DNA of 64,000 bases. Source: a candidate division WWE3 bacterium RIFOXYC1_FULL_40_10. GTDB lineage: Bacteria; Patescibacteriota; WWE3; UBA101185; UBA10185. Below the pieces are notes generated by a model. The model was not told where the DNA came from. It did not search any database and saw nothing but the letters and a program-made list of their open reading frames with translations. Below, in pieces: positions 51,342-52,115 of this stretch (within the stretch, counting starts at the first letter, position 1; every line of letters begins with the position of its first letter). The stretch is from NCBI GenBank assembly GCA_001773215.1, contig MEWB01000001.1, positions 69,964-133,963 of the forward strand. The letters run 5' to 3'. The position numbers and the translations under genes were made by a program.

Positions 51342-52115
51342 GTGTATATAAAACTGCCTTTTATTAACCGTATAGTTGTAGCATCGCTAATTTGTGTGGT
51401 CAGTACTGCGGTTGTTTCGGCTCTTTCTGAATTTACTGCTGTCTCATTAAACACTGAGAATAATTCCGGGGAAGTTGGGAGCATTGTTTCCTATATTGAC
51501 GGAAAATATATGCTCTCATCAAGGGAATATGATGAAGGAATGTTTGGTGTAATTGTTGACGCTCCAGCAACCTACCTAATTGATAGAAATTTAATCTCCC
51601 CACATTTAGTTGCATCTTTTGGTGAGATTAAGACTAAAGTGTCAGGAAATAAGGGCCCAATAGTACCGGGTGATTATGTGACAAGTTCTGATATTCCTGG
51701 AGTAGGGGTTAGGGCAGAACAAGCCGGTTATGTTTTGGGTGTAGCGACATCTGAGTTTACTCCGAATAGTCCCGATGAAATTGGGGAAGTCTTTGTCTTG
51801 GTTGATGTAAAAGTTAATTTTCTTGCTCGTGGGGTGTCAAAGAACATAATAGACACTGTTCAAAAGGCATTTGCCTCTCCCTTTATGACTCCAATAGCTG
51901 CACTTAGGTATTTGCTTGCGTCTTTGATTTTTTTGGTGTCGTTGGCCATAGGCTTTAATTCGTTCGGCAAAGTTTCTGGAACTAGTATGGAAGCCTTAGG
52001 AAGAAATCCTTTGGCAGGGGGGTCTATAAAGAGGATGTTATTTTTCAATTACTTACTCACTTTTGTAATTATGTTTGTAGGTCTAGTAATCGCGTACTTA
52101 ATTATCTCAGTATAA
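51342..52115 (+). CDS. Hypothetical membrane protein whose C-terminal ~75 aa form an F-type ATPase c-subunit-like helical hairpin lacking the ion-binding carboxylate; N-terminal ~180 aa are an unrelated signal-anchored soluble domain
   Basis: C-terminus [57 protein letters not shown] versus canonical c: G-rich helix 1, the R-Q/N-P loop, helix 2. Helix 2 has no D or E. The gene sits in the operon position normally held by atpB/atpE. The start codon is uncertain. Confidence 0.5.

Follow-up and report, generated by a model that had tools for sequence, protein, structure and literature searches.

A c-subunit homologue lacking the ion-binding carboxylate and fused to a predicted extracytoplasmic domain in an F-type ATPase operon of candidate division WWE3

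A 64-kb stretch of DNA from candidate division WWE3 bacterium RIFOXYC1_FULL_40_10 (GCA_001773215.1, contig MEWB01000001.1, positions 69,964-133,963; called the window below, and numbered from its first nucleotide) contains a gene, here named X, that stands at the head of an F-type ATPase operon. The X protein has lost the ion site of a c subunit and has gained a signal peptide and an ectodomain of about 130 amino acids; the motifs of the F1 subunits encoded with it are intact, and there is no gene for subunit a in the operon. We regard it as probable that X is the atpE orthologue of the WWE3/Microgenomates-type F-type ATPase, and that it serves as an ion-blind c subunit in an ATP-hydrolysing motor whose output is directed to the cell surface. 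X should be called a c-subunit homologue and not a functional proteolipid, as it has the fold, the loop, the profile similarity and the operon position of a c subunit and lacks the carboxylate and the subunit a partner.

Hypothetical protein A3K34_00620 of candidate division WWE3 bacterium RIFOXYC1_FULL_40_10, which belongs to the Patescibacteria (candidate phyla radiation, CPR), has the same sequence as the X protein (100% identity). An AlphaFold2 (AF2) model, for which 64 homologues were used as input, had a mean predicted local distance difference test score (pLDDT) of 90.7. The model consists of a hydrophobic helix (residues 7-21), an all-beta region (32-159, pLDDT 96-98), a short helix predicted with lower confidence (165-178) and a hairpin of two long helices (184-221 and 223-256, pLDDT 94-97). 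Nucleotides 51885-52115, the 3' end of the open reading frame (ORF) 51342-52115 on the plus strand, encode residues M182-V257 and the TAA stop codon. A preliminary description of the window, made from the sequence alone, had noticed that these last 76 residues have the layout of an F-type c subunit, and this was borne out by the comparisons described in the next two paragraphs.

When X or its 76-residue hairpin was scanned against Pfam as a single sequence, no match to ATP-synt_C was obtained at E≤10, and the resemblance therefore had to be tested with profiles. With a profile of 64 homologues searched against 177,635 distinct PDB sequences, the top seven matches were all F-type c subunits (E 5.8e-4 to 0.018). 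They included the c sequences of Chloroflexus and Spirulina, three chloroplast c sequences and Acetobacterium woodii c2; the next match was unrelated (E 1.5). In an hhalign comparison the hairpin columns of the X family were aligned over 70 columns with nine canonical c subunits at a probability of 90.9% and a P value of 1.2e-6. Scanning the 64 family members singly, we found that 12 touched PF00137 (ATP-synt_C), with a best E of 1e-3. Several X homologues carry the label 'F0F1-type ATP synthase membrane subunit c' or a COG c/K subunit label in IMG.

Structure comparison gave the same picture. Foldseek superposed the modelled hairpin on solved c subunits with a root mean square deviation of 1.2-1.7 Å at 20-26% identity, and the TM-scores normalised to the c targets were 0.74-0.89. 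A helical hairpin being a simple shape, the sequence evidence was weighted above the superposition. X also fills the atpE slot, directly upstream of b-delta-alpha-gamma-beta-epsilon in the canonical atpE-F-H-A-G-D-C order, and this context, an atpE slot in an operon without subunit a, strengthens the reading of X as a c subunit. The similarity of the hairpin to F-type proteolipids is shown to go beyond chance, and the profile matches indicate descent from such a proteolipid.

Conservation was counted in an alignment of 265 family members. Position 241, which corresponds to the essential carboxylate, is occupied by I, F, L, V, A, G, T, M or C and in none of the 265 sequences by D or E, and on this position the profile and hhalign alignments agree. 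The preliminary description had pointed out that helix 2 of the X protein contains no Asp or Glu; this is correct, and the loss of the carboxylate proved to be common to all members aligned (265/265). Acidic residues are found in either transmembrane (TM) span in only five members (three with E at 236, two with E at 209), and neither TM helix has a conserved charged residue among the 265. Column entropies revealed in helix 2 a conserved packing stripe, I229-N236-T240-I243-G247-A251/Y252-L255, and a variable hydrophobic stripe formed by positions 241, 242, 245, 246 and 249; conserved packing stripes are present on both helices of the hairpin. Since the high entropy of position 241 is typical of lipid-facing sites, the former ion site appears to behave now like an ordinary position of that kind. 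The residues of X aligned with the published Na+-site positions of the Ilyobacter tartaricus c subunit are all hydrophobic and none is polar.

Other parts of the hairpin have been kept. R221-N222-P223 is invariant (265/265), and the conserved residues of helix 1 are P184, R189, Y190, A193, S200, F201, G204, F205, F208, G209, K/R210, E217 and G220. Helix 1 had been characterised as Gly-rich, which it is not: the conserved small residues are only S200, G204 and G209, and there is no GxGxGxG motif. The R-N-P loop was correctly recognised, and only its presentation as a departure from a canonical R-Q-P has to be revised. R-N-P occurs also in mitochondrial c. It is itself a canonical variant, found in the Chloroflexus c subunit 9itj_H. 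Mean pairwise identity is 49% in the hairpin, 38% in the ectodomain and about 24% in the signal peptide and the linker. The hairpin is the best-conserved part of X, and to judge from this pattern it would be under selection for something besides ion binding.

The ectodomain was compared with phage proteins at the level of the family, the X protein alone giving no Pfam match. PF23982 (XM1_gp53_minor_capsid) was matched by 19 of the 64 members (best 1e-4) and PF09956 (Phage_cement_2) by nine. The Foldseek matches in the PDB were 3suc (premature phi29 gp12) and 8pkh (Borrelia phage BB1 decoration protein). In BFVD the ectodomain matched uncharacterised or tail/appendage proteins with E 1e-11 to 1e-9 over about 135-150 columns, and a 'preneck appendage protein barrel' was among these matches (E 1.8e-11 over 137 columns). 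Profile and model together indicate that the ectodomain is a beta module of the phage-appendage/cement type. Phage modules of this type usually oligomerise on larger assemblies.

The N-terminal segment of X is probably a cleavable signal peptide of the Sec type, and in the homologues this segment ends in A-x-A or A-x-S motifs. The positive charges of the hairpin (K210, R221, K230 and R231) cluster at the loop. In c subunits the loop is inside and both termini are outside. Because of the Sec-type signal peptide ending in ...ALS/EF, the positive charges at the loop and the known topology of c subunits, we infer that the beta domain of X is outside the cell and the loop inside. The preliminary description had placed a soluble domain upstream of the hairpin in the same frame and without an intervening stop codon; this holds, but its size, given as about 180 amino acids, is about 130-150 after removal of the probable signal peptide.

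There is no stop codon or frameshift between the two domains, and the fusion, for which a check of the frame had been proposed, is kept across hundreds of lineages. The same full-length architecture of about 250-290 amino acids was seen in 120 homologues among the matches listed and the best 150 representatives. A profile search returned at least 710 clusters at 50% identity (E≤1e-30), and when a single genome was scanned for each species, 438 genomes had relatives, mostly those of WWE3, Woesebacteria, Levybacteria and Amesbacteria. The family is thereby seen to be kept in a large share of the Patescibacteria. Many metagenome-assembled genomes that bear the X operon are titled 'uncultured Candidatus Saccharibacteria', 'Gammaproteobacteria' or 'Pseudomonadales' (binchicken assemblies), labels that look unreliable.

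For 80 related loci, each taken with flanks of up to 10 kb, the gene order around X was reconstructed. The order X-b-delta-alpha-gamma-beta-epsilon is present in about 58 of the 80 and spans 51342-57090 in the window (Table 1). The alpha subunit contains the Walker A sequence GDRNTGKT and the Arg-finger context GYRPPIN. In the PDB, beta was closest to an engineered hybrid F1 beta whose core domains are ancestral (E 1.5e-114); natural F1 beta subunits came next (about E 1e-110). The delta/OSCP-like subunit, short as called in the window, has 150-180 amino acids in most relatives. The C-terminal helices of epsilon inhibit ATP hydrolysis in ordinary bacterial enzymes. Judged by the length of epsilon, whose median across the related loci is 88 amino acids, these inhibitory helices are lacking throughout the family.

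A partner for X in ion transport was searched for in the same material. Subunit a (atpB) provides the essential Arg and the half-channels. Using phmmer with E. coli a and c, we obtained no matches among all ORFs of 86 sequence sets. Within ±10 kb of the 80 loci there was neither a subunit a nor a canonical c: the ORFs of 150-400 amino acids with three or more TM segments were X itself, M50 proteases and unrelated proteins. In the 64-kb window neither an a-like gene nor one for a canonical c was found, the multi-TM proteins being by Pfam ComEC, an M50 protease and an O-antigen-ligase-like protein. According to Kantor 2013 (PMC3812714), subunits a, b and c could not be recognised in a complete WWE3 genome; the authors also remarked in passing on an odd operon with a 'putative c subunit'. 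The same study described these organisms as being without respiratory chains and as having an H+/Na+ pyrophosphatase for membrane potential.

Table 1. Coordinates of gene X, its parts, the ATPase operon and neighbouring genes (window numbering, except for the last row, which refers to the individual loci)
Feature	Position	Strand	Basis or remark
Gene X (c'-subunit, 257 aa): signal peptide, beta ectodomain, linker helix and c-type hairpin	51342..52115	+	AF2
Probable signal peptide, residues ~1-28, hydrophobic helix 7-21	51342..51425	+	...VSALS/EF resembles a signal peptidase I site
Predicted extracytoplasmic all-beta domain, residues ~29-160, pLDDT 96-98	51426..51821	+	Pfam, Foldseek PDB, BFVD
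Linker with short helix (residues 165-178), contains M182	51822..51890	+	little conserved, pLDDT 62-78
Hairpin helix 1, residues 184-220	51891..52001	+	alignment, AF2
Predicted cytoplasmic polar loop R221-N222-P223-L224-A225	52002..52016	+	R-N-P codons 52002-52010
Hairpin helix 2, residues 226-257	52017..52112	+	alignment, column entropy
Codon F241, aligned with the essential carboxylate (E. coli D61)	52062..52064	+	profile alignments
Codon N236, near-invariant polar residue in the membrane	52047..52049	+	265-sequence alignment
b-like peripheral-stalk subunit, 201 aa, one N-terminal TM and a charged coiled region	52134..52739	+	38-orthologue profile, PDB subunit b E 1.3e-6
delta/OSCP-like subunit, 128 aa as called	52736..53122	+	41-orthologue profile, OSCP/delta E 1.3e-4
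F1 alpha, 490 aa	53119..54591	+	PF00006 E 8e-59
F1 gamma, 294 aa	54572..55456	+	PF00231 E 6e-22
F1 beta, 458 aa	55453..56829	+	catalytic motifs all intact, including AELSEDD
epsilon, 86 aa, beta-sandwich only	56830..57090	+	PF02823
Giant surface protein, 1799 aa: MerR-type helix-turn-helix, one TM, long extracellular region, Peptidase_S74, K1-lyase_C	45802..51201	-	Pfam
Divergent intergenic region giant/X, 140 bp	51202..51341	.	promoter-like hexamers in both directions, consensus matches only
3283-aa protein with seven ConA-like lectin domains (Laminin_G_3), its gene immediately following that of the 1799-aa protein	35922..45773	-	Pfam
Proteins with X-like module	L021 2109-9734, L041 2067-7454, L078 1718-9298, L018 2202-9086, L052 1030-5343, L056 1806-5957	-	profile match

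The gene diverging from X encodes a giant surface protein. In the window it has 1799 amino acids, with the MerR-type helix-turn-helix (HTH) domain at residues 22-58 and the Peptidase_S74 chaperone domain at 1482-1533. Of the 73 loci with enough upstream sequence, 64 have a divergent gene for a giant with this HTH no more than 2.5 kb upstream of X. This pairing could reflect regulation or a physical partnership. Modules resembling the X ectodomain were detected in the giants of four loci (L018, L021, L041 and L078) and in large neighbours of X in two others (L052 and L056), with E values from 1e-6 to 4e-24, which suggests a shared toolkit of extracellular domains or homotypic contacts. A search of the 140-bp region between the two genes for an operator palindrome yielded no more than promoter-like hexamers of the ordinary kind and one weak inverted repeat (71%), and was uninformative on regulation.

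Several features of these loci were recorded in passing. The fusion of a DNA-binding domain to a surface fibre of more than 1000 amino acids is odd in itself. In six Levybacteria-type loci (L061, L066, L070, L072, L073 and L079) a conserved protein of 311-319 amino acids, Fic-like with a C-terminal HTH by eye, is encoded between the giant and X. In seven loci (L004, L062, L074, L076, L078, L081 and L084) a cofactor-independent phosphoglycerate mutase of 560-579 amino acids (PF01676/PF06415 in L004) lies in the same orientation between X and the b-like gene. These inserted genes, Fic/HTH-like between giant and X or phosphoglycerate mutase between X and b, were considered as parts of the ATPase and rejected as such. 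A second alpha-like match in L076 was likewise rejected as evidence of a second rotary ATPase, being a weak P-loop match (E 1e-5). At their extreme N-terminus, before the TM segment, the b-like subunits share a short, conserved 'LP' motif; they vary in length from 196 to 376 amino acids.

The following mechanism is proposed. Mature X would have its ectodomain outside and its loop inside, and would oligomerise into a c-type ring that docks gamma and epsilon through the invariant R-N-P, which we take to be the counterpart of the R-Q/N-P loop contacting gamma and epsilon in F-ATPases. A ring without the carboxylate or subunit a would carry no H+ or Na+, so that the enzyme would be neither a chemiosmotic ATP synthase nor an ion pump. 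F1 would hydrolyse ATP and exert torque on an ion-blind ring topped by an extracellular crown, and the most likely output would be work at the cell surface, of a mechanical or conformational nature, in which the divergently encoded giant protein may take part. A motor that only hydrolyses ATP and acts at the cell surface fits the missing inhibitory domain of epsilon, the fermentative lifestyle, the pyrophosphatase and the link to the giant protein. The conserved hairpin, the invariant R-N-P, the intact F1 motifs, the retained stalk and the wide spread argue that the complex is still a working machine.

A number of observations weigh against an ion-blind motor. The X protein taken alone reaches no Pfam threshold, remaining below the gathering score of PF00137. 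N236, which is located in the membrane, is near-invariant (N in 228 of the 265 members, H in 21, S in 11, E in three and Q in two) and could belong to an unrecognised binding site. The absence of subunit a was established in neighbourhoods only (±10 kb, and the window). The assembly is not uniform either: three Woesebacteria-type loci (L001, L080 and L082) have the order X-alpha-gamma-beta-epsilon with no b or delta within ±10 kb, and three WWE3-type loci (L040, L047 and L057) keep X and the b-like gene with no delta, alpha, gamma, beta, epsilon or giant nearby. In the latter loci X and b may be independent of F1, or F1 may be encoded elsewhere. A motor performing external work needs an anchored stator, and the TM helices of the b stalk have no subunit a to hold. 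A MerR gene divergent from its target operon is a classic regulatory layout, and the giant may simply be a MerR-type regulator of the operon and not its mechanical partner; the window's own giants contain no significant X-like module (E 0.14 and 0.0065).

The surface-directed motor can be pictured more concretely, in a form that we consider less likely than not. F1 would spin, or exert torque on, the ion-blind c'-ring, and the crown would pass the motion across the membrane to the giant fibre-like protein, with attachment to or manipulation of a host as possible uses; among Patescibacteria the complex would correspond to the F1-like X0 ATPases of mycoplasmas. The other explanations discussed below, a static dock, a cryptic ion site and decay, are all less consistent with the data than an ion-blind motor.

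F1-like ATPases serve export in type III secretion systems (T3SS), and X might correspondingly be a static membrane dock, with the F1 head working as an ATPase of the T3SS/FliI type or as a chaperone for the export or folding of the giants and the ectodomain forming an outer collar. The giant surface protein is indeed a conserved neighbour, X-like modules are present inside some giants, and some loci are without b and delta. A role in translocation has been discussed for the mycoplasma F1-like ATPases (Beven 2012). We nevertheless consider a static dock unlikely. Gamma and epsilon are kept, as are b and delta in most loci, and these parts make sense mainly for generating torque. The N-terminal TM anchor of the giants is compatible with ordinary Sec/YidC insertion, and no export-gate homologue is present.

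Retention of the full rotary set of b, delta, gamma and epsilon could also mean that the complex is still coupled to ions, binding H+, Na+ or another ion at a non-canonical site (N236/S200/T240) and using a highly divergent or distantly encoded stator in place of subunit a. The polar, nearly invariant N236 is displaced by five residues from the canonical site towards the cytoplasm, about one quarter of the way into the membrane from that side, and is replaced by H or E in some members; the search for subunit a, moreover, covered neighbourhoods only. However, all known rotor sites of the F, V and A types require, to our knowledge, a carboxylate, and the TM helices of the X family have no conserved charged residue. 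The canonical site has become a variable, apparently lipid-facing position. No a-like multi-TM gene was present in the 80 neighbourhoods or the 64-kb window, and none was reported from the complete WWE3 genome (Kantor 2013). Ion coupling of this kind seems to us distinctly unlikely.

It is very improbable that the operon is what is left of an ATP synthase decaying in a reduced genome, and that its hairpin and ectodomain have no specific function. The genomes of the CPR are streamlined, and from many of them ATP synthase genes have been lost, or minimal complexes are all that is kept (Mahendrarajah 2023); the three loci with X and b but no F1 would be in line with such decay. Against it stand the invariant residues and full-length ORFs across the 438 species genomes and the 710 or more clusters, the intact catalytic motifs, the hairpin as the region under the strongest conservation, and the gain of a conserved ectodomain, which is an innovation.

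An artefactual fusion (a frameshift or an assembly error joining a c gene to that of a secreted protein) and separate translation of a free hairpin from the in-frame ATG of M182, the internal start at the MTPIAAL methionine raised in the preliminary description, were rejected as having next to no probability, since the same architecture and length recur in every homologue and across independent assemblies, M182 is Met in only 25 of 64 homologues and no Shine-Dalgarno sequence precedes its codon.

An ion-blind motor would bear on how the energy metabolism of these bacteria is reconstructed. Metabolic models of Patescibacteria count an 'F-type ATPase' as a route between ATP and proton-motive force (e.g. 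PMC13293708, PMC8672522). For WWE3 and Microgenomates-type lineages this chemiosmotic inference probably does not hold, given a rotor without an ion site and an operon without subunit a. If the proposal is true, the enzyme would be the first of the F type that clearly keeps c, b, delta, gamma and epsilon while discarding ion coupling and adding an extracellular domain, and it would represent a natural experiment on the uses of the F1 motor besides chemiosmosis. The tight genomic pairing of X with the giant provides a hypothesis for how ultra-small episymbionts power a surface apparatus. A c-ring that cannot bind ions and carries outward-facing domains had been called unprecedented, a word that needs softening in view of the remark in Kantor 2013, the c/K labels in IMG and the mycoplasma F1-like X0 ATPases, which are a precedent for F1 without Fo. 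In the literature searched, nothing relevant was found beyond that passing mention and what Mahendrarajah 2023 says in general terms of 'minimal complexes', and we found there no description of the lost carboxylate, the missing subunit a or the ectodomain.

Among known systems, the nearest solved relative by sequence is the c subunit of Chloroflexus aurantiacus (PDB 9itj_H), which shares the GRNP loop with X. Like F-type c subunits in general (AtpE, PF00137), X has a two-helix hairpin of about 75 amino acids, its R-N-P loop predicted to be inside and its termini outside, and is encoded by the first gene before b-delta-alpha-gamma-beta-epsilon. It differs from them in having no membrane carboxylate, no GxGxGxG in helix 1 and no subunit a partner, and in the fused signal peptide and ectodomain. 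With the phage cement and appendage barrels (PF09956, PF23982, 3suc and 8pkh) the ectodomain shares the same beta fold and a weak but repeated profile similarity; unlike those modules, it is fused to a membrane hairpin and encoded in a cellular ATPase operon.

A rotor hairpin without its carboxylate is known from the proteolipids of V/A-type enzymes. Ion sites were lost after duplication in eukaryotic V-ATPase c and archaeal V-type c, and the loss is tied to a shift towards ATP hydrolysis (PMC9171764). These proteolipids are duplicated four-TM proteins with at least one carboxylate per subunit, and their rings transport ions with an a/I subunit, whereas X consists of one hairpin and has no ion site.

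The nearest precedent as a system is provided by the F1-like X0 ATPases of mycoplasmas, which combine F1-type alpha, beta, gamma and epsilon with a membrane sector other than Fo in a genome-reduced, host-dependent bacterium, and which are linked to cell-surface functions. Type 2 is the G1-ATPase of the gliding motor of M. mobile, and Type 3 is required for antibody cleavage by MIB-MIP (PMC3369863, PMC12994834, PMC11864180). The X0 clusters comprise seven genes, which include those for a 12-TM protein and a small cytosolic protein but none for b or delta (PMC12994834). In contrast, no 12-TM gene adjoins the X operon, and homologues of b and delta are present; moreover, the mycoplasma clusters coexist with a normal F1Fo, whereas the X loci show no canonical Fo in their neighbourhoods. 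The mycoplasma 'Protein 5', the topology of which is disputed, is described as a signal peptide followed by a large domain and a C-terminal pair of TM segments with a short loop between them, a layout like that of X. There may be an evolutionary and mechanistic link between the X operon and the X0 motors of gliding and immune evasion, and if X indeed belongs to a surface motor, 'Protein 5' would be a derived c subunit.

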